Notes under the pieces: model-generated
Told to the model about the DNA's origin: nothing
Databases searched by the model: none
The model's input: only the letters and a program-made list of their open reading frames with translations
DNA from: a virus
Lineage: Duplodnaviria > Heunggongvirae > Uroviricota > Caudoviricetes
Virus record (IMG/VR): IMGVR_UViG_3300045988_009865
Coordinates: 1 to 64,000 of that record
Direction: 5' to 3' (one strand)
DNA: 64,000 bases
Made by a program: the position numbers and the translations under genes
Part shown: in pieces, positions 1,903 through 59,955 of the stretch
Layout of the letters: each line of letters begins with the position of its first letter
Numbering within the stretch: the first letter of the stretch is position 1

Positions 1903-1926
1903 TTGACAAAGGACTTGACAAGGTGT
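1903..1926 (+). promoter_or_regulatory. double-TTGACA element TTGACAAAGGACTTGACAAGGTGT preceded by A-rich tract
   Basis: near-identical 24-mer recurs at 44181..44204; upstream of first plus-strand early gene; no clean -10 at canonical spacing. Confidence 0.4.
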
Positions 1927-2052
1927 AGGCTTATAAATACTTAGAAGATAACTTAAAAGGTTCCTCTAAAAAGGCTATTTAAACAGATATCTTTCTGGAT
2001 ATCTATCTTTTATCTTAAAAGCCTTTTAAGAGGTCTTATAAGAGGCATACCA

Positions 2053-2424
2053 ATGAAAAACAGAACAAACAAAGGCCAGTTTAAAAAAGGACAGTCTGGT
2101 AACCCATCTGGAAGACCGAAAGGCTCTCGTAACAAAAGCTCACTTGTAAAAGCTCAACTGACCATTGATAATTCTGCTGAGTTTGCTGCAAAGTTGTTTG
2201 AGGCGATTGTTACAAGGGACGCTGCTAAGCTTGCAGAGTTCGGTTTAAACACAGATGACGTAACCATCAAGAGCATGATTGAGGTCGGTAAAACTATCAT
2301 GACTCACTCAGCAGGTGAGATGAAAGCAATTGCAGCAGATACTAAGAAAACCCCTGATAATGGTGGTCAACCACAGACAGATAACAAACCAACGTTCTCT
2401 GCTGTAGCGACTCTCAAAAAATAA
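2053..2424 (+). CDS. hypothetical basic protein (N-terminal GQSGNPSGRPKG motif)
   Basis: 123-aa ORF; Lys/Arg-rich N-terminus. Confidence 0.55.
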   Translation: MKNRTNKGQFKKGQSGNPSGRPKGSRNKSSLVKAQLTIDNSAEFAAKLFEAIVTRDAAKLAEFGLNTDDVTIKSMIEVGKTIMTHSAGEMKAIAADTKKTPDNGGQPQTDNKPTFSAVATLKK

Positions 2425-2436
2425 TTTTAAAAGGTG

Positions 2437-2466
2437 TTGACAGACTCTACAAAGTTGCTCTAAAGT
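2437..2466 (+). promoter_or_regulatory. sigma70-like promoter (TTGACA, 18-nt spacer, TAAAGT) with AAAGTTTTAAAAGG-type A/T tract upstream
   Basis: -35 2437..2442, -10 2461..2466; 9-bp inverted repeat TGACAGACT/AGTCTGTCA (2438..2446 / 2464..2472) overlaps it. Confidence 0.5.
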
Positions 2467-2504
2467 CTGTCACATCAAACAACAATGAGCGAAGAGAGTA
2501 AAAT

Positions 2505-3920
2505 ATGAGCGAGTTATTCAAACATGCGCACCTTCATGCAGGTCGAACTGAAAATGGTGCTGTAAACCATACTTCATCAATGTCTGCTCTGGTAGACTTT
2601 TACAAAGCCGCTGGCTCAAGCCGTAGCAATGTAGAAATCTTACCAGACCTGTTCTACAAAGCTTTGCGTGAGGATGTTGATGTTGCAGTTCGTATTTTAC
2701 TGCATATGCGAGATGTACGAGAAGGCATGGGTGAGCGTAAAGCTTTCCGAACTGTTTTACTTCAAGCGATTGAAGATAAGGTTTTAGAGCCTACACAGGT
2801 TCTTCGTATTATGGATAAGATTGCAGAACTTGGTCGTTTTGATGACTTCAAAATCTTCGTAGGTACTCGTTTTGAGACAGATGCCTTCAAACATTTAGAA
2901 GCAGCATTACTAGACCCTGCAACAGCAGGTTTAGCAGCTAAGTGGTTACCACGAGTAAAACCACGCCACAAACAGTTTGTAAAACGTTTCTGTAAGTTTG
3001 CAAACTTAAGCGAGAAAGAGTATCGCACACTGTTATCTGCACTGTCTGATACGGTTGAGCAAAAAATCTCTGCGAATGAGTTTGGTAAGATTGACTACAG
3101 CAAGATTCCTTCACTCGCTGCTGCACGTTACCAAAAACTCTTTAACCGTAAAGATGGAGAACGTTACAAAGCTTACATCGAATCACTATCAAAGGGTGAG
3201 GCTAAGATTAACGCTGGTGCTGTTTACCCATATGATGTGATTAAATCTATTAAGTATGGTAATGCAGATGTTGCTAATGAGCAGTGGAAAGCACTTCCAA
3301 ACTGGATGGCAGAAGGTGAAAACATCTTGTGTATGACTGATGTTTCAAGCTCAATGTCTTGGGTAAATCTTGGCTCAATTACTGCCCTTGATATTGGTGT
3401 ATCACTTGCCTTGTATGTAGCAGAACGCAATACAGGTTGCTTTAAAGATGAGTTAATGGTCTATTCAACAAACCCTCATTTCATTGAACTGAGTGGTGAT
3501 TTACGAAACCGTCATCGTCAGGTAATGCGTCATGTTGAATATGGTTCAACTAACTTACAAGCAGCTTTTGACCGTATTCTTGAGATAGGTAAGAGAAACA
3601 ACTTGACTCAGAAAGATATGCCAAGTAAGCTTATTATCTTCTCTGATATGGAGTTTAATCAGGTTGATGGTGCAAATGGTCGTACAAACTTTGAAGCAAT
3701 TCAGAGTAAGTACAAAAAAGCTGGATACGAAATGCCACAACTGGTATTCTGGTACTTAGCAAACCGTAATGGTACTTGCGAAGTATCCGTTAAGGATAAC
3801 GGTGTAGCAATGGTATCAGGGTTCTCTCCAGCCACTTTAAAAGCTCTGCTTGGTGGTGAGAAGTTTGACCCAATCAGCGTAATGCTCAAAGCAGTAATGA
3901 TTGACCGTTATATCTGGTAA
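2505..3920 (+). CDS. von Willebrand factor A (MIDAS) domain protein
   Basis: 471 aa; DxSxS MIDAS motif in MTDVSSSMSW; GAGAG RBS; N-terminal domain not recognised. Confidence 0.6.
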   Translation: MSELFKHAHLHAGRTENGAVNHTSSMSALVDFYKAAGSSRSNVEILPDLFYKALREDVDVAVRILLHMRDVREGMGERKAFRTVLLQAIEDKVLEPTQVLRIMDKIAELGRFDDFKIFVGTRFETDAFKHLEAALLDPATAGLAAKWLPRVKPRHKQFVKRFCKFANLSEKEYRTLLSALSDTVEQKISANEFGKIDYSKIPSLAAARYQKLFNRKDGERYKAYIESLSKGEAKINAGAVYPYDVIKSIKYGNADVANEQWKALPNWMAEGENILCMTDVSSSMSWVNLGSITALDIGVSLALYVAERNTGCFKDELMVYSTNPHFIELSGDLRNRHRQVMRHVEYGSTNLQAAFDRILEIGKRNNLTQKDMPSKLIIFSDMEFNQVDGANGRTNFEAIQSKYKKAGYEMPQLVFWYLANRNGTCEVSVKDNGVAMVSGFSPATLKALLGGEKFDPISVMLKAVMIDRYIW

Positions 3921-3938
3921 AAAGTTTTAAAAAGGGTA

Positions 3939-3967
3939 TTGACAATGTGTTTAATACCCTTTAATAT
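3939..3967 (+). promoter_or_regulatory. sigma70-like promoter (TTGACA, 17-nt spacer, TAATAT)
   Basis: -35 3939..3944, -10 3962..3967; 7-bp inverted repeat GGGTATT/AATACCC overlaps -35; TTTTAAAAAGGG tract upstream. Confidence 0.55.
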
Positions 3968-4028
3968 GTTCTACATAGAAACGAAATGAGAGCTTTTCTA
4001 AGATACTGAAAAATATTTTAAAAAGTTC

Positions 4029-4058
4029 TTGACAACCACTAAAAAATAATGTTAAAGT
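4029..4058 (+). promoter_or_regulatory. sigma70-like promoter for the tRNA cluster (TTGACA, 18-nt spacer, TAAAGT)
   Basis: -35 4029..4034; inverted repeat AACCACT/AGTGGTT overlaps spacer and -10; first tRNA begins about 27 nt downstream. Confidence 0.5.
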
Positions 4059-4084
4059 GGTTACATAGAGTTTGAAAAGTTTAT

Positions 4085-4161
4085 CTCTGTTTAGCTCAGC
4101 TTGGTAGAGCGTTCCGTTTGGGGCGGTAAGGCCGGAGGTTCAAGTCCTCCAACAGAGACCA
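4085..4161 (+). tRNA. tRNA-Pro (anticodon TGG)
   Basis: 7-bp acceptor CTCTGTT/AACAGAG, D-arm TAGCTCAGCTTGGTAGAGC, loop TTTGGGG, T-arm GGAGGTTCAAGTCCTCC, encoded CCA. Confidence 0.75.
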
Positions 4162-4168
4162 AATTAAT

Positions 4169-4246
4169 GTTCCAGTAGACAAAACGGTAAAGTCACCACT
4201 CTTTCAAAGTGGATATTTGAGGGTTCAAATCCCTTCTGGAACGCCA
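4169..4246 (+). tRNA. tRNA-Glu (anticodon TTC)
   Basis: acceptor GTTCCAG/CTGGAAC, anticodon arm CCACT-CTTTCAA-AGTGG, T-loop TTCAAAT, CCA. Confidence 0.8.
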
Positions 4247-4251
4247 GTTTT

Positions 4252-4327
4252 GACAGAAGACCAATTACAGCAAACTTAATCTTATTCATCTGACACGAAA
4301 TCGGACAAAGAAGAGATTTGGTCTGGT
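4252..4327 (+). repeat. covarying stem element copy 1 (CAGAAGACCAA ... TTGGTCTGG)
   Basis: AGACCAA 4258..4264 pairs with TTGGTCT 4318..4324; conserved ACAGCAA after 5' arm. Confidence 0.6.
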
Positions 4328-4337
4328 CATTAAGAAT

Positions 4338-4414
4338 TGCGGGTATAGAGAAAGGGCGTCTCACATGTCTCATTAGCATGGTATCGGCAGGTTCGACTCC
4401 TGCACCCGCCTCCA
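4338..4414 (+). tRNA. tRNA with CAT anticodon (Met or Ile2); register of acceptor ambiguous
   Basis: D-stem GAGA/TCTC, anticodon arm CATGT-CTCATTA-GCATG, T-arm GCAGGTTCGACTCCTGC, CCA; 1-72 mismatch or 6-bp acceptor. Confidence 0.5.
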
Positions 4415-4420
4415 ATTTTG

Positions 4421-4480
4421 CAGAAGACCGTATGCAGCAATAAACTACTTTTTGCGGATAAAAGAAAAAACACGGTCTGG
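4421..4480 (+). repeat. covarying stem element copy 2 (CAGAAGACCGT ... ACGGTCTGG)
   Basis: AGACCGT 4425..4431 pairs with ACGGTCT 4472..4478. Confidence 0.6.
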
Positions 4481-4491
4481 CAATGTATTAA

Positions 4492-4568
4492 GGTTAGGAA
4501 GCACATAAGGTATGTGCGGTCGCCTGTTAAGCGAATGGCACAGGGTTCGAATCCCTGACTAACCGCCA
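4492..4568 (+). tRNA. tRNA-Asn (anticodon GTT)
   Basis: acceptor GGTTAGG/ACTAACC (6/7), loop CTGTTAA, T-arm CAGGGTTCGAATCCCTG, CCA. Confidence 0.75.
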
Positions 4569-4577
4569 AATTTAAAT

Positions 4578-4665
4578 GTGTCGTTATCCCGTAGATGGTA
4601 GCGGTGGGGACTGTAAATCCCTTGTCATTGAGACTCGGTAGGTTCGACTCCTACACGGCACACCA
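4578..4665 (+). tRNA. tRNA-Tyr (anticodon GTA), long variable arm
   Basis: acceptor GTGTCGT/ACGGCAC, anticodon arm GGGGA-CTGTAAA-TCCCT, 15-nt variable arm, T-arm GTAGGTTCGACTCCTAC, CCA. Confidence 0.65.
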
Positions 4666-4671
4666 AATAAA

Positions 4672-4749
4672 GGTTATGTAGTTTAATCTGGTTAAAATAC
4701 TCCCCTGTCACGGGAGATGATGAGGGTTCAAATCCCTTCGTAACCGCCA
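4672..4749 (+). tRNA. tRNA-Asp (anticodon GTC)
   Basis: acceptor GGTTATG/CGTAACC, anticodon arm CTCCC-CTGTCAC-GGGAG, T-loop TTCAAAT, CCA. Confidence 0.8.
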
Positions 4750-4835
4750 AATTATAATAAGTATTTCAAGATGATGTTTTGAGAGGGCTATTTAGCCCCT
4801 CCCTTAAAGAGTTCTTACGAGTATTCTTTAAAGGA

Positions 4836-4910
4836 GCAGAAGACCAAATACAGCAAGTTACTTAAAATTTCAAGCCAATTTAATTTTGAAAAATTTAAAA
4901 CTTGGTCTGG
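4836..4910 (+). repeat. covarying stem element copy 3 (CAGAAGACCAA ... TTGGTCTGG) enclosing palindrome TTTCAAG..TTTTGAAA
   Basis: AGACCAA 4840..4846 pairs with TTGGTCT 4902..4908. Confidence 0.6.
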
Positions 4911-4923
4911 CTCAACAAATTTA

Positions 4924-5055
4924 CAGAAGACCGTTTACAGCAAAAACTAAACAATCTATTTCTCCGGTAAAGAAAAGGCGAAGGTTCGATTCCTTCACTC
5001 GGCAGATGTCGAGTTGGTGTAATGGTAGCACTTAAGATGATAAACAACGGTCTGG
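4924..5055 (+). repeat. covarying stem element copy 4 (CAGAAGACCGTT ... AACGGTCTGG) enclosing the permuted tRNA-like locus
   Basis: AGACCGTT 4928..4935 pairs with AACGGTCT 5046..5053 (8 bp). Confidence 0.6.
4959..5032 (+). pseudogene. circularly permuted tRNA-Thr(GGT)-like locus: 3' half, GAT linker, 5' half
   Basis: 3' half 4959..5004: anticodon arm TTTCT-CCGGTAA-AGAAA, T-arm GAAGG-TTCGATT-CCTTC, acceptor 3' ACTCGGC, A73; 5' half 5008..5032: acceptor 5' GTCGAGT (7/7 with one G.U), D-arm GTGT-AATGGTA-GCAC; C at position 33. Confidence 0.45.
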
Positions 5056-5062
5056 TAATTGT

Positions 5063-5194
5063 CTTTGTAGATAAGTTATTAAGCTTACCTGTGAGTATGC
5101 GACCACAAAGGGTGAAAGGGTAAATTCTAGATTTAAACCCAACAAGGCACATCGCTACAGACCTTAAGCAAGTCTGGGTAGCTTATCTACAAAG
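5063..5194 (+). ncRNA. long imperfect hairpin element (possible small structured RNA)
   Basis: 13-bp inverted repeat CTTTGTAGATAAG 5063..5075 / CTTATCTACAAAG 5182..5194 closing about 105 nt; no tRNA fold. Confidence 0.3.
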
Positions 5195-5204
5195 ATAATT
5201 TAAT

Positions 5205-5280
5205 GGAAGTGTAGCAGAATGGTGATGCGGCAGACTTTTAATCTGACAGGCGATGGGTTCGAATCCCTCCACTTCTACCA
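5205..5280 (+). tRNA. tRNA-Lys (anticodon TTT)
   Basis: acceptor GGAAGTG/CACTTCT (G1.U72), loop CTTTTAA, T-loop TTCGAAT, CCA. Confidence 0.7.
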
Positions 5281-5284
5281 ATAT

Positions 5285-5361
5285 GGTTCAGTCGCAGATA
5301 AGGTAATGCAGGGGTCTCATAAGCTCTATGAATGTGGGTTCGATTCCCATCTGAACCTCCA
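5285..5361 (+). tRNA. tRNA with CAT anticodon (Met or Ile2)
   Basis: perfect acceptor GGTTCAG/CTGAACC, loop CTCATAA, T-arm GTGGGTTCGATTCCCAT, CCA; anticodon stem has wobble pairs. Confidence 0.6.
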
Positions 5362-5362
5362 A

Positions 5363-13051: not shown

Positions 13052-13551
13052 TGGCTGAAGTTATCTCTATTTCAAATGCTACACGAGTGCATTCGTATAG
13101 GGGTGTCCTTATCATTACTGATAAGCTATCTGTAGAGGCTGGCTCAAGGGTCAGCCTTTCAGGTTATGTTAGTGATGGTGGAATCTCTGACGTTTTCACT
13201 ATTTGTAGGTTACTTGATGCACCAATGAGTGGAAAACCGTTTATTTCAGGAAATTGTAGTGAAATTGTTAAAATTCCATTTGACAGTTCATGCCTTTTGG
13301 GTGTAAAGTTATATAACTGCGAGAATAAACGTATCAATGTTAAAAGCATTGAAGCCGCTTTCATTACCCTCGACACTGCATTTCAATCTCCAATGACAGT
13401 TAATAAAGAAACAAACAGACTTGAATACATTTTTTCACAAAATGATTACAAAGTACTTGTCAAAGGTAAAGTATATGATATGATTGTAAATGTGGTAGAT
13501 GAATCTGGTAACCATTCAACAGTCCTTAAACAAAAAGTAAGGTTTAATTAA
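13051..13551 (+). CDS. hypothetical protein
   Basis: 166-aa ORF, ATGA overlap with portal stop. Confidence 0.5.
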   Translation: MAEVISISNATRVHSYRGVLIITDKLSVEAGSRVSLSGYVSDGGISDVFTICRLLDAPMSGKPFISGNCSEIVKIPFDSSCLLGVKLYNCENKRINVKSIEAAFITLDTAFQSPMTVNKETNRLEYIFSQNDYKVLVKGKVYDMIVNVVDESGNHSTVLKQKVRFN

Positions 13552-13894: not shown

Positions 13895-15241
13895 ATGAGT
13901 TCGAATATCTTCAGACTTGCTGATAGATTATTCAACCAACCTTTACTAGCCACTGAATCATTAGCTCACTCAGCAGCAACTTATGTGAATAACAGATTGC
14001 TGGGTGATGTCCAAGCAGCAGTAAACTTTGATAAACCCAAAGGTGAAGCAAGAAGTCTTTTAAAAGTAAAAGATGACATTGCTATTATCCCTATTATGGG
14101 TGGTTTAACTCATCGTATGACATTCATTGATGCAATGTGTACAGGTGGTCTAAGCTCTTATGAAGGTTTACGTAGAGGCTTTGACGAAGCTTTAGCAGAT
14201 GAGTCAATTAAGACTATTGTTCTGCATATTGATTCTGGTGGTGGTGAAGCTTCAGGTTGCTTTGAATTAGCACGTCACATCATGGCTTCAAGAGGCCAAA
14301 AGAAAATTATTGCTTATGTAGATGAGTTCGCTTGTTCCGCTGCATATGCTCTTGCATCTTCTGCTGAAGAAATTATTGCATCACCAGATGCAGATGTTGG
14401 TTCTATTGGTGTAATCATGGTTCATCAGGAATTAACTAAGGCATTTGAAAAGAATGGCGTAACAATTAACGTCATCAAAGCTGGTGAGTTTAAAGGTATG
14501 GGTTCACCATTCCAAGCACTTTCAGAAGAAAGCAAAGAAAGACTTCAAAAGAGAATTAATGATACCTACGCAACCTTTACAGGTTTTGTAGCCGAATCTC
14601 GTAATCTCTCTGAAGAAGCTGTAAAGAATACTGAGGCGAATGTTTATTCTGCTCAGGAAGCTCTTGAACTTGGTTTAATTAACTCAATCATGTCTCAAGA
14701 TGATTTCTTAAATTACTTACAAGGTTCTGAAGAGGCTCCTGTAAGTTTAAACGTTAACAATTCAGGTGAAGAAATGACTGAACAAGAAAAGCAAGAACTA
14801 GAAGCTTTGCGTCTTCAGGTTGCTCAAATGAAAGCTAAAGAACAGGAAGCTGCTTTGTCAGATTTGACTAATAAGATTTCTGCTTCTGCTGAAGCTTTTG
14901 GATTTGATGCAAAAGAAGCTGCAACGACTATTTTAGGTGCTGGTCTTGATAACCCTCTGAGTGTTCTGTTTATGAATGCTATGGAAGGTGCTAACCAGAA
15001 ACTTAATGAAACTATCGCATCCCATGCTTCTGCAATGGAAGAAAAAGAATCAGAAATTACCAAGCTGAAAGAAACTGCTGGTGCTGTTCTTGAACATTCC
15101 AACGCTATGGAAGAAATGGGTAATGACGGCGAAGCTGATTTGGTTGAAGAAGAAAAAGAACCAGCTAAGAATGCTTCCGAAGACACCGCTGAACAACGCA
15201 AACTGGCTCTCCAGAATGCTCTAAAATCTCTTATCAAATAA
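13895..15241 (+). CDS. prohead protease (S49/ClpP-like) fused to coiled-coil scaffold-like C-terminal domain
   Basis: N-terminal IDSGGGEASG...SIGV motifs typical of S49 head-maturation proteases; C-terminal Glu/Lys/Ala-rich heptad region; position between portal and capsid. Confidence 0.65.
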   Translation: MSSNIFRLADRLFNQPLLATESLAHSAATYVNNRLLGDVQAAVNFDKPKGEARSLLKVKDDIAIIPIMGGLTHRMTFIDAMCTGGLSSYEGLRRGFDEALADESIKTIVLHIDSGGGEASGCFELARHIMASRGQKKIIAYVDEFACSAAYALASSAEEIIASPDADVGSIGVIMVHQELTKAFEKNGVTINVIKAGEFKGMGSPFQALSEESKERLQKRINDTYATFTGFVAESRNLSEEAVKNTEANVYSAQEALELGLINSIMSQDDFLNYLQGSEEAPVSLNVNNSGEEMTEQEKQELEALRLQVAQMKAKEQEAALSDLTNKISASAEAFGFDAKEAATTILGAGLDNPLSVLFMNAMEGANQKLNETIASHASAMEEKESEITKLKETAGAVLEHSNAMEEMGNDGEADLVEEEKEPAKNASEDTAEQRKLALQNALKSLIK

Positions 15242-15252
15242 GGAACACAATA

Positions 15253-15630
15253 ATGGCATATCAAGGTTTTACTAAGTTAGGTAAAAGAGAACCTCTGAAT
15301 GATATCATTCTTTGGGAACAGGTTACCCCAACAGGCCACTCTCGTAAAGAGTACACTCCAGTTGCTTCAACAGAATACCGTGTAGGTGAAGTTCTGAAAG
15401 CAGATGGTACTAAGGTACAAGCTGGAGAAGAAACTCAGGCTGATTCTGTATGTATCGTTAACTTTTATGCAGACCTACAACTGTCTTACCACGGTCAGTT
15501 GAAAGTTGTTGGTATTTACCGTGATGCAGAATTAAAAGACATGCTGACTCTTGAATCAAGCGTTGATGCTGCCGCAGTCAAGAAAGCTCTGGCTGCTAAA
15601 GGTATTGATTTCGTACCAACTGGCCTGTAA
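15253..15630 (+). CDS. hypothetical head protein
   Basis: 125-aa ORF between protease/scaffold and capsid; AAGGAA RBS. Confidence 0.5.
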   Translation: MAYQGFTKLGKREPLNDIILWEQVTPTGHSRKEYTPVASTEYRVGEVLKADGTKVQAGEETQADSVCIVNFYADLQLSYHGQLKVVGIYRDAELKDMLTLESSVDAAAVKKALAAKGIDFVPTGL

Positions 15631-15663
15631 TAACAATAATAAGACATTCTGGAGAATTTTACA

Positions 15664-16770
15664 ATGTTGACTAATTCTGAAAAAAGCAGATTTTTCCTTG
15701 CTGACCTGACTGGTGAAGTCCAGTCTATCCCAAATACTTATGGGTATATTTCCAACTTAGGTCTGTTCCGTTCAGCACCAATCACCCAAACTACTTTCCT
15801 TATGGACTTGACTGATTGGGATGTTAGCTTGCTTGATGCGGTAGACCGTGATAGCCGTAAAGCAGAGACTAGCGCACCTGAGCGTGTTCGTCAAATCAGC
15901 TTCCCAATGATGTACTTCAAAGAAGTTGAAAGCATCACTCCTGATGAAATTCAGGGTGTACGTCAGCCAGGCACTGCAAACGAACTGACTACTGAAGCTG
16001 TAGTACGTGCTAAGAAGCTGATGAAGATTCGTACCAAGTTCGATATTACTCGTGAGTTCCTGTTTATGCAAGCCCTGAAGGGTAAAGTTGTTGATGCTCG
16101 TGGTACGCTGTATGCTGACCTGTACAAGCAGTTCGATGTTGAGAAGAAGACTATTTACTTCGACCTTGATAACCCTAATGCGGATATCGACGCTTCTATC
16201 GAAGAACTGCGTATGCACATGGAAGATGAAGCTAAGACTGGCACTGTAATCAACGGTGAAGAAATTCACGTAGTTGTTGACCGTGTGTTCTTCAGCAAGC
16301 TGACTAAACACCCTAAGATTCGTGATGCTTATCTTGCACAGCAGACTCCACTGGCTTGGCAACAGATTACTGGTTCTCTGAGAACTGGTGGTACTGACGG
16401 CGTTCAGGCTCATATGAACACTTTCTACTACGGTGGTGTTAAGTTTGTCCAGTACAACGGTAAGTTCAAAGACAAGCGTGGTAAGGTTCACACTCTGGTG
16501 AGCATTGATAGCGTAGCAGACACTGTTGGTGTTGGTCATGCTTTCCCTAACGTTTCTATGCTGGGTGAAGCAAACAACATCTTCGAAGTTGCATATGGTC
16601 CATGTCCTAAGATGGGTTATGCAAATACACTTGGTCAGGAACTGTACGTATTCGAATACGAAAAAGACCGTGACGAAGGTATTGACTTCGAAGCTCACTC
16701 TTACATGCTGCCATACTGTACTCGTCCTCAGTTGCTGGTAGATGTTCGCGCTGACGCTCAAGGTGGCTGA
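15664..16770 (+). CDS. major capsid protein
   Basis: 368 aa; position after protease/scaffold; GGAG RBS. Confidence 0.6.
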   Translation: MLTNSEKSRFFLADLTGEVQSIPNTYGYISNLGLFRSAPITQTTFLMDLTDWDVSLLDAVDRDSRKAETSAPERVRQISFPMMYFKEVESITPDEIQGVRQPGTANELTTEAVVRAKKLMKIRTKFDITREFLFMQALKGKVVDARGTLYADLYKQFDVEKKTIYFDLDNPNADIDASIEELRMHMEDEAKTGTVINGEEIHVVVDRVFFSKLTKHPKIRDAYLAQQTPLAWQQITGSLRTGGTDGVQAHMNTFYYGGVKFVQYNGKFKDKRGKVHTLVSIDSVADTVGVGHAFPNVSMLGEANNIFEVAYGPCPKMGYANTLGQELYVFEYEKDRDEGIDFEAHSYMLPYCTRPQLLVDVRADAQGG

Positions 16771-36128: not shown

Positions 36129-36458
36129 TTAATCTGCCAACCTTAAATTGAAATTAACACCAAATTTTTCGCATACTTCCAACATAAACTCAAGAGAGAC
36201 ATTACCAGTGAGATTAATTATGTTGGATACACGAGCCTGAGAGATACCACAAATTTTAGCAACTTGCTCTTGAGAAAGACCTCTGGATTTAATCTCTCTC
36301 TTAAAACGATGTGCAACGAAGTCTCTCATTTCGTCTACATCCATTGGACAAACATAACTCTCCATTTCAGCCTCTCTGTCAGCCTCCCAATCATCTTGTG
36401 GAGCATAAGGGTCAAAAACCTCATTCATCTTTCTTCTTCCGTTTACGTGAAGTGTCAA
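36129..36458 (-). CDS. HTH (XRE-like) transcriptional regulator
   Basis: C-terminal helix-turn-helix LSQEQVAKICGISQARVSNI. Confidence 0.6.
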   Translation of the reverse strand: MTLHVNGRRKMNEVFDPYAPQDDWEADREAEMESYVCPMDVDEMRDFVAHRFKREIKSRGLSQEQVAKICGISQARVSNIINLTGNVSLEFMLEVCEKFGVNFNLRLAD

Positions 36459-37126: not shown

Positions 37127-37213
37127 GGCTACTGCCATCCTTCCATACATTACCTTACCTTACCTCACCTGACCTGACCTGACCCTACCTAACATTACCG
37201 TGCCACACCTCAC
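37127..37213. repeat. pentanucleotide tandem-repeat block A1 (ACC every 5 nt on plus strand)
   Basis: TTACC TTACC TTACC TCACC TGACC TGACC TGACC CTACC TAACA TTACC GTGCC ACACC; plus strand nearly G-free. Confidence 0.8.
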
Positions 37214-37243
37214 TTAAGAACCCTCTTAAAAGACTCTTAAGTG
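37207..37243. repeat. conserved hairpin CACTTAAG-AACCCTCTTAAAAGACT-CTTAAGTG
   Basis: 8-bp inverted repeat; near-identical copy at 38749..38787. Confidence 0.6.
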
Positions 37244-37270
37244 ATGTAATCGAATTTTTATGTAGCTCCG

Positions 37271-38662: not shown

Positions 38663-38752
38663 ACTACCCATACCCTACTTTACCTTACCGTACCGTACTT
38701 TACCCGACCGTACCGGACAATACTTAACCCTACCTCACCCGACCGGACATCA
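38657..38752. repeat. pentanucleotide tandem-repeat block B2
   Basis: about 19 tandem NNACC/NNGAC pentamers (TTTAC CTTAC CGTAC CGTAC TTTAC CCGAC CGTAC CGGAC ...). Confidence 0.8.
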
Positions 38753-38787
38753 CTTAAAAACCCTCTTAAAAGACTCTTAAGTGATGC
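38749..38787. repeat. conserved hairpin ATCACTTAA-AAACCCTCTTAAAAGACTC-TTAAGTGAT
   Basis: 9-bp inverted repeat; copy of 37207..37243. Confidence 0.6.
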
Positions 38788-41359: not shown

Positions 41360-41420
41360 AAGCCCTCCTATATAAGATATTGTATAAGGTACTCTTCCAT
41401 GAGCACCTTGTCAATACTAA

Positions 41421-44120
41421 TTAGTGTACTTCAAGCCAGCTTTTACCAACCTTACCAGTACCTGTAACAAGTGTTTCTTTCTTAAGACCTAAGTTTTTAG
41501 AAGCTTGTCCATAATACCAGTCAGTAACTGCTTTCACATCTGCCGTCATACTTTCTGGACATTCCCAACTCGTCTCATCGTGATATGCGCAGAGCAAACG
41601 AGCACCAATAGCTGGTTGACGACCATTCAACTTCATCAAACCTTCGTCAATCATACGACGGCAAGCAAGGTTAATTGCCTCATTCTGAATTTGAGCCTCT
41701 GAACCCATCAAAAGATAGTTCAACAGTTTGTGTGGAGATTTACACCACAACCAAGCTCCAGCAACCTTTACAAAACCCCCTTTAGAGATTGCAGCAGTCT
41801 TACCAAACACCTCTTCAAGTGCTTTTTTAGTTGCTTTGTAGTCAGCTTCCAAGTCATCAAGTAGCTTCTTAATCTTAGGCAAACGAATAAAGTAAGTCTG
41901 TTTAGTTAGTGCACCTTCCTGAGTAGTTGCAGCTTTAATCGTCTTAGCAAACTTCTCATCACCTGCACCGAACAGTAGTGCATAGATACCATTCTTAGCT
42001 TTCTTACGACCCTTGCTAATCTCATGAAGAAGGTTCTCATCCTGAGTAGCTCGACAAGTCAAGATATCCTGCTCATCATTCAAGCTAAAGTAAATACTGT
42101 TCAGTGTGTGTGCATCAGTCCCTGAATAGACAACGTAAAGGTCATTCTCAGAGTCATAGCGTAGGTACTTATCAACCTCTGGATTGAGGTACTCATCAAA
42201 GTGTTTGCAGTAATAGCGTCCATCTTCTTGACGAATAAACTCAATCTCTTCTTTACCTTGCGTTACCGCTTTGGTGAAGTCTTTGTCACCCATAAAGTTA
42301 CAAAGAAGGACTAGCTGGGCTGAGTTCATGTCTACAGAGACAACGTTAGTACCTTCTTCACAAATCCACACTGCCCTCATTGGTTCCCCATAGACAGCAG
42401 CACCAGACGGTACGTTTACAATACCATACTGTGTCATACGTCCAGTTGAAGTACCAAATACCATTGCACCAGCACTAAGGCGACCATCAGGACGAATCTG
42501 GTTCAGCCAACCTTTTTCATCATCCTTTGAGTTCTCAATAGTTCTGCGTCGGTGCATCAAAGTATAGTACTTAGCAATCTTCTGTCCAAGCTCACCTTCA
42601 ATCGTATCATAAGATGATTCAGTAAGTTTTGGTGAAGTACGGATTAAGCAAGGCTCAAGCAAATCTGTGTACTTCTTCACAGACCAGTTATGTTCAATGT
42701 ACTGGACACCTTCATGTTCAACATAACTCAAACCACACCGTTCCACCATCTCATCCCACTTAGGATGTTTTGTAATCATCTTTTTGTTGTCTTTGAAGCG
42801 ACAAACCTTAACAGGACGACCATCAGAGTCTTTCTTATAGTTCCAGTCATCTGGAATCCAACCAACTGATTTCAAGTAGTCTTTAACAACTGCTACCTGA
42901 GTCATACGAGAAACTTCGAACTCAATTGGTGTATATGGTGCATCAATCAAACCTGTGTAGCGACTTGACTCAAGCTCAAAGTGGTTAACAACATGGCTGT
43001 TATAGTACTTCACAGTCTTAACTGTTTTTACTGGCTTCCAGTCTTTGCACTTCTTACCAATCTTTGCATTCAACTCATTGCAAATTGCACGAGCATCCTT
43101 CATTGCTACAAAGCCTTCCTTGTACTCTTCGCCAGTTACAGAGTTGGTTGGTGTATAGCAATTCCGCTTTTCAATGTTAAAAATCTTGGTAGTTGGTTTA
43201 CCAAATGGCTTGATTTCATATGTCTGCATCTCACCGTTACGTACCTGTTGACGATACTTTGTCTTAGGGTACTTGGTAATTCTCTTCAGTCCATCTGCAT
43301 GACCGAATGCTTCAACATACTCATTCCAAGCTTTTGCAAACTCTTCTCCAGTGACTTTACCTTTGGTCTTAATAGTTGGAGGAAGATGTGGTTCAACTTC
43401 TGAAGCAAGCTCATTAGTCAATTTGTCAAGTTCCTTTACATGAAACTCCATAAGCTCTTTATCAGCTTTCCAACCATTGATAGCCTGTTGACTCATCCAG
43501 AAAGATGTTTCTTTAGCTCGCATGTAGGTTTCATAAGTGTCTATGCCACACTTCTTTAGCTTGAGATATTCATTATCCAGTGCACGTTTAGTTTTGGCGT
43601 TAATACGGATGTCTTCTACAACACGAGTGAAGATTTCTGCATTCCACACACCCCAATGTTCAATCTCTGGTTTACGTACACCAACACGAGCACCCCATGC
43701 AGCCAATCCATGAGCACCTTTATAGCCCTTTGGAGTTGGTCTATCCATCCACTGAACACGAGACTGGATAAGAGAATCCTGAAAGAAATTACTCCACGGC
43801 TTACACTTTGGATTATCAAAGTTCCACAAATCAGGTGCAATGTGATTGAAAACCCACCAGTCATACCCTAAACCATTATGGATGCAAAGTCGTTTTGCCT
43901 TTAACGCAAACTCAATACCTTCACGCAAACCACCCTTAATGTACTTGGTATACTTGTGACCGAGGATAGGTTCATCTGTAAAGACCCATACAGGTGGCTC
44001 TTCATCGTCAGATTTATAGTCTGCGAAAGCCATTACGTGCACCTTAGTGAACTCAAGGAGTAAACCATCAGTTTCTGTATCACCAACTAAATGTAAGTTT
44101 TTAAAATCTACGTTTTCCAT
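41421..44120 (-). CDS. DNA polymerase, family A, with 3'-5' exonuclease domain
   Basis: exo motif VGDTETDGL; Pol A motif A-like VVSVDMNSAQL, motif B-like K..GIYALLFGAG, motif C LLCAYHDE; ATG 44120 with AGAGGGAG RBS preferred over 44150. Confidence 0.85.
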   Translation of the reverse strand: MENVDFKNLHLVGDTETDGLLLEFTKVHVMAFADYKSDDEEPPVWVFTDEPILGHKYTKYIKGGLREGIEFALKAKRLCIHNGLGYDWWVFNHIAPDLWNFDNPKCKPWSNFFQDSLIQSRVQWMDRPTPKGYKGAHGLAAWGARVGVRKPEIEHWGVWNAEIFTRVVEDIRINAKTKRALDNEYLKLKKCGIDTYETYMRAKETSFWMSQQAINGWKADKELMEFHVKELDKLTNELASEVEPHLPPTIKTKGKVTGEEFAKAWNEYVEAFGHADGLKRITKYPKTKYRQQVRNGEMQTYEIKPFGKPTTKIFNIEKRNCYTPTNSVTGEEYKEGFVAMKDARAICNELNAKIGKKCKDWKPVKTVKTVKYYNSHVVNHFELESSRYTGLIDAPYTPIEFEVSRMTQVAVVKDYLKSVGWIPDDWNYKKDSDGRPVKVCRFKDNKKMITKHPKWDEMVERCGLSYVEHEGVQYIEHNWSVKKYTDLLEPCLIRTSPKLTESSYDTIEGELGQKIAKYYTLMHRRRTIENSKDDEKGWLNQIRPDGRLSAGAMVFGTSTGRMTQYGIVNVPSGAAVYGEPMRAVWICEEGTNVVSVDMNSAQLVLLCNFMGDKDFTKAVTQGKEEIEFIRQEDGRYYCKHFDEYLNPEVDKYLRYDSENDLYVVYSGTDAHTLNSIYFSLNDEQDILTCRATQDENLLHEISKGRKKAKNGIYALLFGAGDEKFAKTIKAATTQEGALTKQTYFIRLPKIKKLLDDLEADYKATKKALEEVFGKTAAISKGGFVKVAGAWLWCKSPHKLLNYLLMGSEAQIQNEAINLACRRMIDEGLMKLNGRQPAIGARLLCAYHDETSWECPESMTADVKAVTDWYYGQASKNLGLKKETLVTGTGKVGKSWLEVH

Positions 44121-44180
44121 TTTTACTCCCTCTAAAATCATTAACCTCATACATTACTGCAAAAAATTATAAAAAGCAAG

Positions 44181-44204
44181 TTGACAATGTACTTGACAAG
44201 GTGT
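44181..44204 (+). promoter_or_regulatory. double-TTGACA element TTGACAATGTACTTGACAAGGTGT in divergent region
   Basis: matches 1903..1926 at 22 of 24 positions; followed by repeated ACTTAAAAG words up to gene start 44378. Confidence 0.4.
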
Positions 44205-44377
44205 TAATCTTTGCGAAGTGGGTTTTTACTTAAAAGGTTACTTAACAGTTTAACTATACAGATACTTTAAAACTCTTAAAAGATTATTTAATAGCTTTTA
44301 AAAAGCTTTAAAGTATAACGTATAGAATACGTTAAGATAAAAGATTAAAACTTAATAGTTACTTAAAAGAGGCTTAC

Positions 44378-56237: not shown

Positions 56238-57307
56238 TTAACCAACACCCAATCTTTTTAGGTGGTGAGAGAAAAACATTCGACTCACTTAATAAGCACT
56301 ACCCAAAAATCTTTGAGCTATATAAACAACAAAAAGCACAAGACTGGTCAGAAGATGAGTTCCCTTTTGAACAATCACGCCTTGATTTTGAGAGTGTACC
56401 AGCATCAATGTCAGGTGTAATGCTTGAGATTCTTAAGTGGCAGTGGGAAGCAGATACCCAAGTTGCTAAGAGTCTAGCGTTTGCCTTTGCGCCATTCATC
56501 TCTGATGACATTTATGCAACTGCAATTATGAAGCAGTCTGAGATTGAAAACCTACATGCTCTTACTTACTCGGAGATTGTCAGACAATGTATTAAAAATC
56601 CTGAAACAATCTTAGATGAGATTAACCAGAACATTGCTGTACAAGACCGATTAAAAACTGTGAATCGTGTTCTTGAAGAATTACTAGATGAAGGCATAAA
56701 CTATCGTCTGAGTTATGTCCGTGACTCGCTTCTGGACAAAGACCCTTTACACTTCCATAAAGTGATTCTAAAAGGTCTATTTGCAGTGACTGCACTTGAA
56801 GGCATTTCTTTTATGGCATCCTTTGCATGTACTTTTGCACTTGATGCTCAAGATAAATTTCAAGGTATTGCTCAAGCTGTCCAGAAAATTATGCTTGACG
56901 AAATCCTTCACACTAAAATTGATATTGAAGTTTTAAAAGAAACTTTAAGAGATGATGAGTGGCAAAAAGCTTTCCAACAAATTCTTCCAGAGATTAAAGT
57001 AATCTTAGATGAAGTAGTTGAAAGTGAAGAGAAATGGTCGTATTATATCTTCTCCGAAGGACGTGCTGTAGTTGGGTTAAATACAAAGCTTCTTCATGAG
57101 TGGGTTTACTATAATGCTGCCCCACTGTATGATATGTTTGGCATTCCCAGAGATTTTGTAGCTCCTAAAGAACCACCTTTGAAGTATATGATTAAGAAGA
57201 TGGAAATTGATAAAGAGCAGAATGCTAATCAGGAGCAACAGAACGGTGCGTATTTATTGAATACTGTTGTAGATGATTTGAATAGTGGATTTTTAGAGGT
57301 TCCTTAA
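56234..57307 (+). CDS. nrdB: ribonucleotide reductase class Ia small subunit
   Basis: about 357 aa from ATG 56234 (AAAGGAG RBS); di-iron ligand-like E/H pattern; ATGA coupling with upstream gene. Confidence 0.8.
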   Translation: MINQHPIFLGGERKTFDSLNKHYPKIFELYKQQKAQDWSEDEFPFEQSRLDFESVPASMSGVMLEILKWQWEADTQVAKSLAFAFAPFISDDIYATAIMKQSEIENLHALTYSEIVRQCIKNPETILDEINQNIAVQDRLKTVNRVLEELLDEGINYRLSYVRDSLLDKDPLHFHKVILKGLFAVTALEGISFMASFACTFALDAQDKFQGIAQAVQKIMLDEILHTKIDIEVLKETLRDDEWQKAFQQILPEIKVILDEVVESEEKWSYYIFSEGRAVVGLNTKLLHEWVYYNAAPLYDMFGIPRDFVAPKEPPLKYMIKKMEIDKEQNANQEQQNGAYLLNTVVDDLNSGFLEVP

Positions 57308-57549
57308 TGACTTATGTAATTTACTCCAAAACTGGATGCCCTCAGTGTGAGACTGCAAAGAATTTTGCGAAAGCTCGTGGTATTGACCATGTTGTGAGAA
57401 TGTTAGGGCAGGATTATGAACTGTCAGACCTGATGGATATTGCACAGATGCCAGTTCGTCAGATGCCATTCATCATGAAAACTGATGGTCAAAATCTAAA
57501 ACCTGTTGGAACGCTACAGAATTTTATGGCAGAGGTGAACAATGCTTAA
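57307..57549 (+). CDS. glutaredoxin-like protein
   Basis: 80 aa with CPQC active site near N-terminus. Confidence 0.7.
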   Translation: MTYVIYSKTGCPQCETAKNFAKARGIDHVVRMLGQDYELSDLMDIAQMPVRQMPFIMKTDGQNLKPVGTLQNFMAEVNNA

Positions 57550-57748
57550 ACGCCTTTGGGAAGGTTTGGTTGTTGATGCACCAGCCATTGTGATTGGTAT
57601 GCTTGTTGTTAACCTATTTACTGATTTTGAACAAGGTTCATTGTTTGGAGCCATGTTACTATGGGTTATCTTTGAAATATTAGAGATACAGCTAGGCATT
57701 ACTGAAAAACTAAGAAAACTTGTTTCGAAGTTTTCTAAAAAGATTTAA
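57542..57748 (+). CDS. small membrane protein
   Basis: 68 aa, hydrophobic. Confidence 0.4.
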   Translation: MLKRLWEGLVVDAPAIVIGMLVVNLFTDFEQGSLFGAMLLWVIFEILEIQLGITEKLRKLVSKFSKKI

Positions 57749-57755
57749 AATGAAA

Positions 57756-57777
57756 GGGTCTCTTCGGAGACCTTTTT
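57756..57777 (+). terminator. rho-independent terminator GGGTCTC-TTCG-GAGACC then TTTTT
   Basis: GC-rich stem, tetraloop, T-run. Confidence 0.7.
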
Positions 57778-57796
57778 AGCATGTAAAGGGGCAATA

Positions 57797-59941
57797 ATGA
57801 ACAAAGTACAGATTATTAAAAAGAACGGCTCACTTGAAGAACCTGATATCAAAAAAGTTTTAGCAGCAGTAACTAAGTCAGCTAACAGGGTTGGGTATAA
57901 AGAACTCCCACCAGATGTTACCCAAGCTCTTGAGTCAGCATTTATGAGGATTCTGGTAAAGTCCACTAAGCAGAATAATTTACTCATCTCGGTAAATGAT
58001 ATTCACAGCATCGTTGAAGGTGCTTTGGCAGAAGTCAATCACGAGATTTATGAGTCTTACTCAACATACAGAAATTACCGTAAAGAGGTTGCTCAAAATT
58101 GGGATGAGCTTTACCAAAAGACTAAAGACACACTCTTCTTAGGTGACCGTGAAAACGCTAACTTTGACAGTAGTTTAATTTCTACAAAAGGCTCAATTAT
58201 TCGTGGTTACCTGACTAAAGAAATCTTTAAACAGTACCATTTAACACCAGAGGAACTTGAAGCCATTGAAAAAGGGTTTATCTATATCCATGACTTAAGA
58301 GACCTAATTTTTGGTGGTATCAACTGTTGCCTGTTTGACATTGGTAAAGTACTGAAAGGTGGCTTTGAAATGTCTGGCATCGAATACTGTGAACCGAAAT
58401 CTGTACTGTCAGCCTTACAGGTTATCGGTGATGTAGTTCTTTCAGCAACTGCACAGCAATTTGGTGGTTTTACTTTAGCAGAGATTGATAAGGTGCTTGT
58501 ACCGTATGCTAAGAAGTCTCTACGATATCATGCTGAGAAAGCAGCATCTTACGGTATTCCTAAAGAACATTACCACAATTATGTCATGGAGCAGCTACAG
58601 CTTGAATTAACTCAGGGTTTCCAGTCACTCGAAATGAAACTAAATACTGTACCTTGTAGCCGTGGTGATTTCGCATTTACAACTTTGACATTCGGATTAC
58701 TTGACTCAGATATGTCTAATGAAGACAACCGACTGCAATATATGATTGCAAACACCATTCTTGATGTTCGCATGAATGGACAAGGTAAGAGTAAGAAGCC
58801 TGTTGTATTCCCTAAACTGGTTTATATTCATGACCAGAAGAGACACGATGAGAATATCTGTCAAGGCCAACTGTACAGCAAAGCTATTGAGTGTTGCTCT
58901 AAAGCTATGTATCCAGATTTCTTAAGTGTATCTGGTCATGGTGCTGTAGCAGAGGCTTTTGAGCGTTCTGGCAAGGTAATTTCACCGATGGGTTGCAGAG
59001 CTTTCTTGTCTCCATATCTTAATGAGGATGGGGAAGAGTTCTACGTTGGTCGTGCTAACATTGGTGCTGTATCTTTGAACTTACCAATGATTTACCAGTA
59101 TTCTAAAGAGAATGGTTTAGATTTCTGGAAAGAGCTTGATAAGTACCTAGAAATGATTCGCAGCTTCCATAAGAAACGTTATGAAATGATTGCCAATATG
59201 CCAGCAAGTTCTAACCCTCTTGCATTCACACAAGGCGGTCTGTATAAAGGGACTAAGAAGCCTACTGACAAGGTTGGTTGGGATATTGTGAAGTCCTTCA
59301 CAGCTTCTTTTGGGGTTACTGCTCTTGATGAGTTATCTGTTCTTGCTGAAGGTAAACGACTTCATGAAGTTGGAAGTTCTAGTTTTGCATACGATGTTCT
59401 AGCATACATTAACATGAAAACTGAAGAGTTTAAGAATGAAGATGGCTTCCTGTATGCAGTATATGGCACTCCAGCAGAGTCATTGTGTGGAACTCAGCTA
59501 AAACAGTTCAGAGATATGTTTGGTGTTATTAAAGGCGTTTCTGACAAGGAATACTTTACAAACAGTTTCCATATGAATGTTGCAGCAAACATCTCACCAT
59601 TTGAGAAGCAGGACTTAGAAGAGCCATTCTTCCATATCTGTAGAGGTGGCAGAATCCAGTATGTAAGGGTAGCTAACCCAGAAAACTTACCAGCACTTAA
59701 AAGTTGTATTACCAGAGGTATGTTGAAAGGTTTTTATCAGGGACTTAACTTTGACTTAGCAATCTGCGAACATTGTGGCAACAGACCAAAGGCTGATGTT
59801 GAAGAATGTGAGGTTTGCCATTCACATGACATCTCTGTGATTAACAGAGTGTGTGGGTATCTTGGGTGGACTAAGATTAAAGGTGAATCCCGAATGAATG
59901 ATGCAAAAATTGCTGAGATTCGTGACAGGGTTTCTATGTAA
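57797..59941 (+). CDS. nrdD: anaerobic ribonucleoside-triphosphate reductase (class III)
   Basis: 714 aa; C-terminal Cys cluster CEHCGN...CEVCHS and glycyl-radical motif RVCGYLG. Confidence 0.8.
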   Translation: MNKVQIIKKNGSLEEPDIKKVLAAVTKSANRVGYKELPPDVTQALESAFMRILVKSTKQNNLLISVNDIHSIVEGALAEVNHEIYESYSTYRNYRKEVAQNWDELYQKTKDTLFLGDRENANFDSSLISTKGSIIRGYLTKEIFKQYHLTPEELEAIEKGFIYIHDLRDLIFGGINCCLFDIGKVLKGGFEMSGIEYCEPKSVLSALQVIGDVVLSATAQQFGGFTLAEIDKVLVPYAKKSLRYHAEKAASYGIPKEHYHNYVMEQLQLELTQGFQSLEMKLNTVPCSRGDFAFTTLTFGLLDSDMSNEDNRLQYMIANTILDVRMNGQGKSKKPVVFPKLVYIHDQKRHDENICQGQLYSKAIECCSKAMYPDFLSVSGHGAVAEAFERSGKVISPMGCRAFLSPYLNEDGEEFYVGRANIGAVSLNLPMIYQYSKENGLDFWKELDKYLEMIRSFHKKRYEMIANMPASSNPLAFTQGGLYKGTKKPTDKVGWDIVKSFTASFGVTALDELSVLAEGKRLHEVGSSSFAYDVLAYINMKTEEFKNEDGFLYAVYGTPAESLCGTQLKQFRDMFGVIKGVSDKEYFTNSFHMNVAANISPFEKQDLEEPFFHICRGGRIQYVRVANPENLPALKSCITRGMLKGFYQGLNFDLAICEHCGNRPKADVEECEVCHSHDISVINRVCGYLGWTKIKGESRMNDAKIAEIRDRVSM

Positions 59942-59943
59942 AA

Positions 59944-59955
59944 CTTGACAAGGTG
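59944..59955 (+). promoter_or_regulatory. third copy of 12-mer CTTGACAAGGTG
   Basis: identical to 1914..1925 and 44192..44203; immediately after nrdD stop and forming 5' arm of a hairpin. Confidence 0.35.

Follow-up and report, generated by a model that had tools for sequence, protein, structure and literature searches.

The stretch of viral DNA analysed here, referred to as the window, comprises the first 64,000 nt of the IMG/VR record IMGVR_UViG_3300045988_009865 and derives from a Felix O1-like phage of Escherichia coli (genus Felixounavirus; Felix O1-like myophages have genomes of about 88 kb). Two 5-kb pieces of the window were 97–98% identical to many Escherichia, Salmonella and Shigella phages of this genus, and its gene order is that of phage vB_EcoM_AYO145A (hereafter AYO145A). 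The element in question is a 24-mer that contains the hexamer TTGACA twice. It was found as TTGACAAAGGACTTGACAAGGTGT at 1903–1926 (site 1), in the divergent region between the equivalents of Felix O1 genes 40 and 41, and as TTGACAATGTACTTGACAAGGTGT at 44181–44204 (site 2), between gene 96, which encodes the leftward-transcribed DNA polymerase, and the rightward gene 97. We propose that the 24-mers are the cores of strong σ70-dependent promoters with a selected second −35-like box in the spacer, a reading to which we assign a probability of about 0.6. It is built on the anatomy of the sequence, the pattern of conservation, the rules of spacing and the recurrence of the design in other phages, from which we infer promoter activity, start sites and the role of the second box.

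Reading the sequence confirmed what the original prediction had said about the position of the repeats. The two 24-mers agree at 22 of 24 positions while their flanking sequences are unlike, both are preceded by A-rich tracts (1893–1898 at site 1; 44161–44166 and 44171–44175 at site 2), and both sit in intergenic regions between divergent genes, where a plus-strand gene block begins, with the first ATG at 2053 and 44378, respectively. The 12-mer CTTGACAAGGTG has exactly three perfect copies in the window (1914, 44192 and 59944), the last of which does follow nrdD, beginning 3 nt past its stop codon (59939–59941). A fourth near-copy, ATTGACAAGGTG, lies on the minus strand at 41404–41415, directly past the DNA polymerase stop, and proved to be a genuine fourth member. 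Allowing up to one mismatch, we found five matches to the 12-mer where 0.5 were expected, a count that none of 100 shuffled sequences reached, and a degenerate search for the 24-mer returned only the two sites (0.01 expected). A chance origin of the repeats is ruled out by these shuffles and expected counts. TTGACA by itself is not enriched in the window (69 found, 69 expected). Sites 1 and 2 also share a second 12-mer, ACTTAAAAGGTT, at 1951 and 44228, which is +48 and +47 from the respective starts of the 24-mers. The features of the two sites are as follows, with the two hexamers of each 24-mer called box 1 and box 2.

1893–1898, plus strand: site 1 A-tract AAAAAA, ending 4 nt before box 1; possible proximal UP-element subsite
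1903–1908, plus strand: site 1 box 1, TTGACA; putative −35 hexamer; 0 of 6 columns vary among distinct relatives
1915–1920, plus strand: site 1 box 2, TTGACA; in the spacer (about −23 to −18), with none of its 6 columns variable
1926–1931, plus strand: site 1 putative −10 hexamer TAGGCT, 17 nt (N17) from box 1; predicted start at about 1938
1938–2052, plus strand: site 1 predicted 5′ leader of about 115 nt, with ACTTAAAAGGTT at 1951–1962, a hairpin at about 1984–2005 and the palindrome CTTAAAAGcCTTTTAAG at 2014–2030
44161–44175, plus strand: site 2 A-tracts in phase (AAAAAA and AAAAA, 4 nt apart), ahead of box 1; possible UP element
44181–44186, plus strand: site 2 box 1, TTGACA; putative −35 hexamer, invariant in relatives
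44193–44198, plus strand: site 2 box 2, TTGACA; in the spacer, invariant; 4 of 6 inter-box columns vary
44202–44210, plus strand: site 2 putative extended −10, TGt TAATCT, 18 nt (N18) from box 1; predicted start at about 44217
44217–44377, plus strand: site 2 predicted 5′ leader of about 160 nt, with ACTTAAAAGGTT at 44228–44239 and a hairpin at 44316–44334

The sequence marks expected of a σ70 promoter were found at both sites, namely a TTGACA −35 hexamer, the −10 bases T−12, A−11 and T−7 at a distance of 17 ± 1 nt, and a position and orientation ahead of a gene block. The original prediction had seen no −10 element at a consistent spacing. This holds for the canonical TATAAT, but not for hexamers of the form TAnnnT, which follow the first TTGACA at N17 (site 1) or N18 (site 2) and were missed because they match TATAAT at only three of six positions. 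Its preference for a factor-binding site over a simple promoter survives in part: TAnnnT, A-tracts and orientation point to σ70-type promoters, while box 2 is an additional selected element. All nine double-box loci of the window, AYO145A, Citrobacter phage Moogle and Erwinia phage phiEa21-4 have TAnnnT at N17 or N18 from box 1. Among the TTGACA hexamers of the window, 15 of 69 are followed by TAnnnT at one of these two distances, against 4.3% expected, and many of the 15 share the context AAAAAG-N3-TTGACA. This rate and the common context suggest that the phage carries about a dozen such promoters.

Comparison of relatives separated constrained from free positions. For the −10 region we compared Felixounavirus, Suspvirus-like and Mooglevirus sequences, and three unrelated contigs (L086, L089 and L095) were excluded from the search anchored on site 2. 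Among distinct Ounavirinae sequences, none of 18 columns varied in box 1 and none of 18 in box 2, compared with 12 of 19 between the boxes; at site 1, all six inter-box columns (1909–1914) were variable. Variation in the −10 hexamer was confined to positions 3–5. The site 1 hexamer reads TAGGCT, TAGCCT, TAAGTT or TAGTGT in relatives, with positions 1, 2 and 6 fixed, and that of site 2 reads TAATCT or TAGTCT, preceded by TGt or TGg. The first T, the A and the last T of a −10 element are the positions that matter most for σ70. Their fixation across genera, with a changing middle, settles TAnnnT as the −10 element and box 1 as the −35 element. The upstream A-run of site 1 is kept in all relatives, and relatives of site 2 retain AAAAA-N5/6-AAAAAGCAAG.

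Promoters at these loci had been sought or loosely annotated before. In the account of the Felix O1 genome paper, neither an RNA polymerase nor a known specificity factor is encoded by the phage, a promoter 'P41' was predicted as TTGACA(N15)TATAGG, and early divergent promoters were expected between genes 96 and 97, where none were found. In the Felix O1 sequence, the −35 hexamer of P41 is box 1 of site 1, with TAGGCT at N17, and a complete site 2 element lies between gene 96 and gene 97. AYO145A's depositors annotated promoters by similarity at both places. Their site 2 feature is TTGACA-N18-TAATCT, the equivalent of 44181–44210, whereas the spacer implied by their site 1 feature is impossible. 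What appears undescribed is the conserved second −35 box embedded in the spacer; the loosely annotated promoters were already known.

Box 2 does not behave as part of a promoter of its own, as none of the nine double-box loci has TAnnnT at N15–19 from it. In the loci compared, box 1 is held at 17–18 nt from the −10 element and box 2 begins 5, 6 or 7 nt after box 1. In the Ounavirinae it starts 6 or 7 nt after box 1 and ends 4–6 nt before the −10. Judging by this pattern, box 2 is a separately selected element, because it is invariant while the linker varies and because it is kept in an independent T4-like lineage described below.

The double box recurs in related phages. The complete AYO145A genome contains exactly three double-box sites, of which the third (locus A, at 13453) falls outside the window; it consists of A-tracts, TTGACA, 7 nt, TTGACA and TGgTAACTT, with TAACTT at N17 from box 1. 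All three loci are present and syntenic in Moogle, which belongs to a different genus. The distant phage phiEa21-4 has one double box (16494), with TAAAGT at N17. There, the double box leads into 1.2 kb without an annotated gene (L054, 16494–17660) that is full of TTCTAAAC(C/A)G-type repeats, and AYO145A has a 1.5-kb unannotated gap (14878–16434) in the corresponding part of its genome.

We also scanned IMG/VR for double boxes. Among the matches listed for a 12-nt period, 35 of 117 had TAnnnT at N16–18 from box 1, against roughly 8% expected by chance; those listed for a 13-nt period comprised only Ounavirinae locus A and a 13-nt T4-like variant with a 7-nt linker. Many of the matches belong to one contig family encoding Gp23, UvsY and UvsW, and thus come from environmental T4-like phages. 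Small contigs resembled microviruses in size, a classification that we rejected since Pfam identified them as fragments of T4-like phages. To study this lineage, we took homologues of the adjacent T4-type late σ factor gene (phrog_234, E-value of 8 × 10−62) and read their upstream regions, which yielded 60 distinct sequences with 75–100% protein identity. As the loci were gathered by their late-σ neighbour, they were not selected by the motif. Box 1 was perfect in 55 of the 60, and the TTGACA in the spacer was perfect in 52 and had one mismatch in four more. The spacing to the −10 element (TATAGT, TAAAGT and similar) was 17 nt in nearly all, and box 2 started 5 or 6 nt after box 1, the linker being variable (7 nt in the IMG/VR variant mentioned above). 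When the T4-like promoter was compared with cultured phages by BLAST, the sole matches were the site 1 promoters of Felixounavirus, with 91–94% identity over about 34 nt.

Double boxes of other types were found as well. Contigs L265 and L295 carry a sense-oriented double box with a perfect TATAAT, a ribosome-binding site and an ATG; a BLAST search of the L265-type promoter against cultured phages gave no match. A scan of bacterial genomes gave a weak signal, with TAnnnT in 13 of 120 among the matches listed. Four contigs from metagenome-assembled genomes of Clostridia (L445, L468, L483 and L499) contain AAAAAG-N3-TTGACA-N6-TTGACA-N5/6-TATAAT; within this weak sampled signal, they suggest that the double −35 design also exists outside phages.

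If the 24-mers are σ70 promoters, unmodified host RNA polymerase would start both rightward units at sites 1 and 2, using an A-tract as UP-like element, box 1 as a perfect −35, a spacer of 17–18 nt and a weak TAnnnT −10, with TGn at site 2. Transcripts would start near 1938 and 44217 and begin with long conserved leaders. As part of the same reading, and held with the same confidence, site 1 would drive the rightward unit from DUF5681 through an RNA-binding protein and the tRNA cluster onward, and site 2 would drive replication and nucleotide-metabolism genes. The reader of box 2 is most likely region 4 of host σ70 and not a separate protein. It is the simplest candidate because box 2 has its exact target sequence, because the phages involved are unlikely to share regulators, and because the position of box 2 floats by a base or two. 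Region 4 would then use box 2 as a second docking site, 11–13 bp downstream of box 1. Docking there might help to capture polymerase or smooth the hand-over as the enzyme leaves the promoter, and it would make the promoters unusually dependent on σ region 4. Such roles are conceivable because 11–13 bp is about the distance that the enzyme travels at promoter escape.

Several observations weigh against these promoters or against a role for box 2. Both −10 hexamers match TATAAT at only three of six positions and are rejected by a standard consensus scan. The searchable literature holds no mapped transcript 5′ ends or RNA-seq for Felix O1-like phages, so promoter activity, start sites and timing are predictions. 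In the reverse transcription PCR table for Felix O1, whose data are coarse, genes 41, 42, 96 and 97 peak at 25 min and not at 5 min. At the loci of phiEa21-4 that are syntenic to sites 1 and 2, we found single-box promoters, which suggests that a promoter as such can work without box 2. In the T4-like phages (L345–L424, for instance L345 363–391 on the minus strand; L235 and L258), the double box lies back-to-back with the start codon of the late σ factor (gp55 family), 10–23 nt away, and reads antisense into the DUF6561 gene that lies upstream, with no apparent product. A search for a small RNA found no terminator within 360 nt downstream of it. This antisense direction without an obvious product leaves room for a function other than making mRNA; the double box might, for example, time late-σ expression by interference. 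Finally, we know of no RNA polymerase contact that reads bases at −24 to −17, so that a role for box 2 there would have no structural precedent.

Sites 1 and 2 are divergent regions, and a leftward promoter candidate was found at each.

1849–1877, minus strand: site 1 leftward promoter candidate TTGACT-N17-TACCAT, from a consensus scan; fully conserved in relatives
44151–44179, minus strand: site 2 leftward DNA polymerase promoter candidate TTGCTT-N17-TAATGT; its −35 is back-to-back with box 1, 1 nt apart

The site 2 candidate is present in all relatives, where its −10 reads TAATGT, TAGTGT or TAGGGT. It is a candidate for the second of the divergent promoters that the Felix O1 genome paper expected between genes 96 and 97 and did not find. 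The start of the DNA polymerase gene itself is placed at 44150 by the mechanical open reading frame and at the equivalent of 44141 by the AYO145A annotation. Both positions are upstream of an in-frame ATG at 44120, which is the more likely start, given its strong Shine-Dalgarno sequence GAGGGAG (region 44118–44150).

Other explanations of the repeated hexamer make use of the same facts. Boxes 1 and 2 could together form the operator of a phage regulator that binds TTGACAA-N5-TTGACAA and turns these early promoters off, or on, in the course of infection. Such a protein could bind a direct repeat that spans a promoter core with a period near 12 nt and is conserved with a variable linker, and the phage encodes a possible one, the HTH_3 protein at 36129–36458 on the minus strand (PF01381, E-value of 5 × 10−11; phrog_1373). 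The mechanism of temporal control is given as unknown in the Felix O1 genome paper, and the further 12-mer at about +12 in both leaders could be another site. We nevertheless regard an operator as unlikely: box 2 is exactly the σ70 −35 consensus, its offset floats over 5–7 nt, which is awkward for a rigid dimer site, and the architecture also occurs in T4-like phages, other contigs and some metagenome-assembled bacterial genomes that are unlikely to share a Felix O1-type regulator. The HTH_3 protein remains a candidate promoter regulator in its own right; it is a Cro/C1-type helix-turn-helix protein of 109 amino acids with a sub-threshold match to σ70 region 4 (E-value of 3 × 10−4, below the Pfam cut-off). 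Copies of a promoter cassette that moves or recombines, held similar by homologous exchange and with box 2 as a functionless passenger, would account for sites 1 and 2 being 22/24 identical in differing flanks. Exchange of this kind has been proposed for the PeSL (promoter-early stem-loop) cassettes of T4-type phages, whose architecture is shared by the single-box sites 3 and 4 described below, and further intergenic repeats that contain promoters are reported in the Felix O1 genome paper. Gene conversion, however, would homogenise the whole tract, whereas the 6 nt between the boxes differ by locus and genome around constant boxes, and the retention of box 2 at varying offsets in an unrelated lineage is the signature of selection on the hexamer. 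A cassette thus seems quite improbable. Both explanations fit the cross-lineage conservation and the variable linker less well than docking of σ70 region 4.

We consider it very improbable that the boxes mark two tandem promoters, or that they serve the divergent leftward ones. Two perfect −35 hexamers 12 nt apart could in principle serve overlapping tandem promoters, the second starting about 12 nt downstream, and by eye, box 2 of site 1 is followed by AATACT at N15 and by TACTTA at N17. Site 2 and locus A have AAGTGG and GGGGGT, respectively, in the equivalent position, so a −10 element for box 2 is lacking in line with the zero of nine given above, and in the T4-like set no −10-like hexamer recurs consistently at one distance from box 2. 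Read on the opposite strand, TTGACAA becomes TTGTCAA, which might provide the −35 of leftward promoters in these divergent regions; on the minus strand of site 1, TTGTCA (1909–1904)-N18-TGcAATAGT does look promoter-like. Against this, the conserved leftward candidate of site 2 has its own −35, TTGCTT, beside box 1, and at site 1 the better-conserved leftward candidate lies further off. Moreover, there is no divergent gene at locus A or in L265 and L295, and in the T4-like phages the divergent start codon is only 10–23 nt from box 1.

Known systems resemble the predicted double −35 promoters in part. Early coliphage promoters such as T5 PN25, T7 A1 and the 'Pearly' promoters of RB49 and phi1 share with them the A-tract, a perfect TTGACA, a spacer of 17–18 nt, TAnnnT with TGn in some cases, an initially transcribed region that is conserved, a place at the start of an operon and a phage without its own polymerase. 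They differ in that the spacer here contains a second perfect TTGACA, which is selected, and in that the −10 hexamers here are much weaker; to our knowledge, a spacer-embedded −35 has not been described for T5 PN25, T7 A1 or Pearly promoters. At lambda PR′, σ70 region 4 reportedly re-binds a −35-like element during promoter-proximal pausing, once the polymerase has advanced. A second −35-like hexamer downstream of the real −35 and a tolerance of variable spacing are common to both cases. The PR′ element, however, works jointly with the Q protein and with a −10-like pause element located in the initially transcribed region, while box 2 lies in the spacer, 11–13 bp from box 1, with no TAnnnT at the corresponding place.

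Regulator-dependent promoters were compared in the same way. The Pho box, a response-regulator site that overlaps the −35 (CTGTCAT-N4-CTGTCAT with an 11-nt period), likewise consists of two direct repeats of 6–7 nt about one helical turn apart in the −35/spacer region. Here, the period is variable (11–13 nt), the sequence is the σ70 consensus, the phages have presumably very different hosts, and there is no link to a host regulator. T4 middle promoters combine a MotA box centred at −30 with a σ70 TAnnnT-type −10 element and depend on σ appropriation by AsiA and MotA. The likeness consists of a weak TAnnnT-type −10 and a conserved upstream or spacer element in a temporal programme on host polymerase. 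The difference is that the conserved element is TTGACA and not (a/t)(a/t)(a/t)TGCTTtA, and that a genuine −35 is also present. The Felix O1 paper describes a group without known factors of the MotA/AsiA type. We rejected a MotA-dependent middle promoter, as TTGACA occurs twice, with a genuine −35 at the normal distance and no TGCTTtA in its place. A σ54 promoter (TGGCAC-N5-TTGCA), which has GG and GC doublets 10 nt apart, was rejected as well, as the boxes lack the GG/GC pair and have a period of 12 nt. Pho box, FNR/CRP sites, σ32 and σ54 had also been dropped by eye, since their spacing or key bases did not fit. A T4-late-type TATAAATA at site 1 (1932–1939) is not conserved, relatives reading TAATAAATA or TAATAAAACA.

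The remaining two copies of the 12-mer have a different architecture. The third copy is not the same element as the 24-mers; it has a single −35 box that abuts an intrinsic terminator.

59945–59994, plus strand: third copy (site 3), single TTGACA at 59945–59950 abutting the nrdD intrinsic terminator; putative promoter-in-terminator, PeSL-like
41386–41414, minus strand: fourth copy (site 4), TTGACA at 41414–41409, followed by a 9-bp hairpin (41409–41401/41394–41386)

The nrdD terminator has a 16-bp stem (59950–59965/59970–59985) and a T-run from 59984 (ΔG of −23.7 kcal/mol, z = −5.8), and TGaTAGGCT (59966–59974) lies at N18 in its loop and 3′ arm. The transcript predicted from this copy would lack the 5′ arm and would thus escape termination. 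At site 4, which sits between the DNA polymerase stop (41421–41423) and the next ATG (41359), TACCTT is found at N17 in the 3′ arm of the hairpin (ΔG −16.3, z = −3.7); the AYO145A depositors annotated a promoter there. Site 3 is conserved in AYO145A and Moogle and site 4 in Moogle, and where the 5′ arm has changed at these sites, pairing persists as G-U or A-U. On this anatomy, sites 3 and 4 are a separate class of putative single-box promoters, nested in the terminator or hairpin that ends a preceding large gene. The AAGGTG that follows TTGACA at all four sites is accounted for in part: at sites 3 and 4 it belongs to the stem, as its 5′ arm (at site 3, the beginning of that arm), and at site 2 a part of it supplies the TG of the extended −10.

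In phages RB49 and phi1, PeSL cassettes are repeated σ70-like promoters with stem-loops that mediate modular shuffling (Arbiol et al. 2010, PMC2839356). The commonest PeSL layout consists of a stop codon, AT-rich bases, a −35, a stem-loop that either separates −35 from −10 or overlaps the −10, a Shine-Dalgarno sequence and a start codon (PMC2839356), and sites 3 and 4 have this layout. They are likened to the RB49 PeSLs by layout; their stems are not of the G-run/C-run type. They also differ in location: the genes ahead of them, nrdD and DNA polymerase, are core genes, whereas PeSLs flank ORFans in hyperplastic regions, and both sites are syntenic in Moogle. The stem-loop component of a PeSL was absent from sites 1 and 2, where no terminator-like hairpin lies in or beside the 24-mers; by eye, the two boxes could pair only 3 + 3 bp around an A-A mismatch. 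Elsewhere in the window, a hairpin with a 12-bp stem at 3931–3967 holds TTGACA (3939) with TAATAT at N17, a PeSL-like cassette just before the tRNA cluster, and matches the Felix O1 terminators t42/t43. A near-identical repeat of about 36 nt, CACTTAA(G/A)AACCCTCTTAAAAGACTCTTAAGTGATG, occurs at about 37211–37246 and 38751–38786, in two large intergenic gaps of the minus-strand operon, and can form the hairpin CACTTAAGA/TCTTAAGTG.

The predicted leaders of sites 1 and 2 are themselves conserved. That of site 1 is nearly invariant among relatives and folds with a z-score of −3.45 against shuffled sequences. Compared with Moogle, it is 91% identical, as against 79% for the following coding sequence; this non-coding leader is better conserved than the surrounding genes and carries the 17-nt palindrome CTTAAAAGcCTTTTAAG. 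In the site 2 leader, the hairpin at 44316–44334 reads TAACGTAT-aga-ATACGTTA, and in Moogle the pairing is kept by changes on both sides (TATGTAT...ATACATA). These compensatory changes suggest a selected RNA structure. An Rfam scan of the window brought only tRNAs to gathering scores and gave no match for the leaders. In both predicted transcripts, the 12-mer ACTTAAAAGGTT falls at about +12 to +14, where locus A of AYO145A has CTAAAAGG; it may serve as a conserved element of the initially transcribed region or as the site of a regulator. We rejected CTTAAAAG as one regulatory word: it is enriched (19 copies, 5.4 expected), yet its copies lie in hairpin stems, terminator loops and coding sequence, and only the copy at about +12 of the leaders shows positional consistency.

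Felix O1-like phages are widely used in Salmonella typing and biocontrol, while their transcription programme is unmapped. The sites described here would place the promoters that the Felix O1 genome paper could not find, both in the 96/97 region and at P41, which had been given an impossible spacing. Current models of σ70 promoters do not account for a conserved, floating −35 box that is embedded in the spacer and recurs in unrelated phages. If box 2 turns out to be without effect, the finding amounts to the correct annotation of ordinary phage promoters. If it affects capture, escape or sensitivity to anti-σ factors, transcription biochemists would have a use for it, as would those who design strong or switchable promoters. 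We suggest, as a speculative extension that we hold to be rather doubtful, that the double −35 is a distinct promoter element adopted by unrelated virulent phages, a built-in switch dependent on region 4 that tunes capture, escape or σ retention. Were this the case, double −35 promoters would turn off once the phage or the host inactivates σ region 4, and in T4-like phages the double-box switch would control the adjoining late-σ gene.

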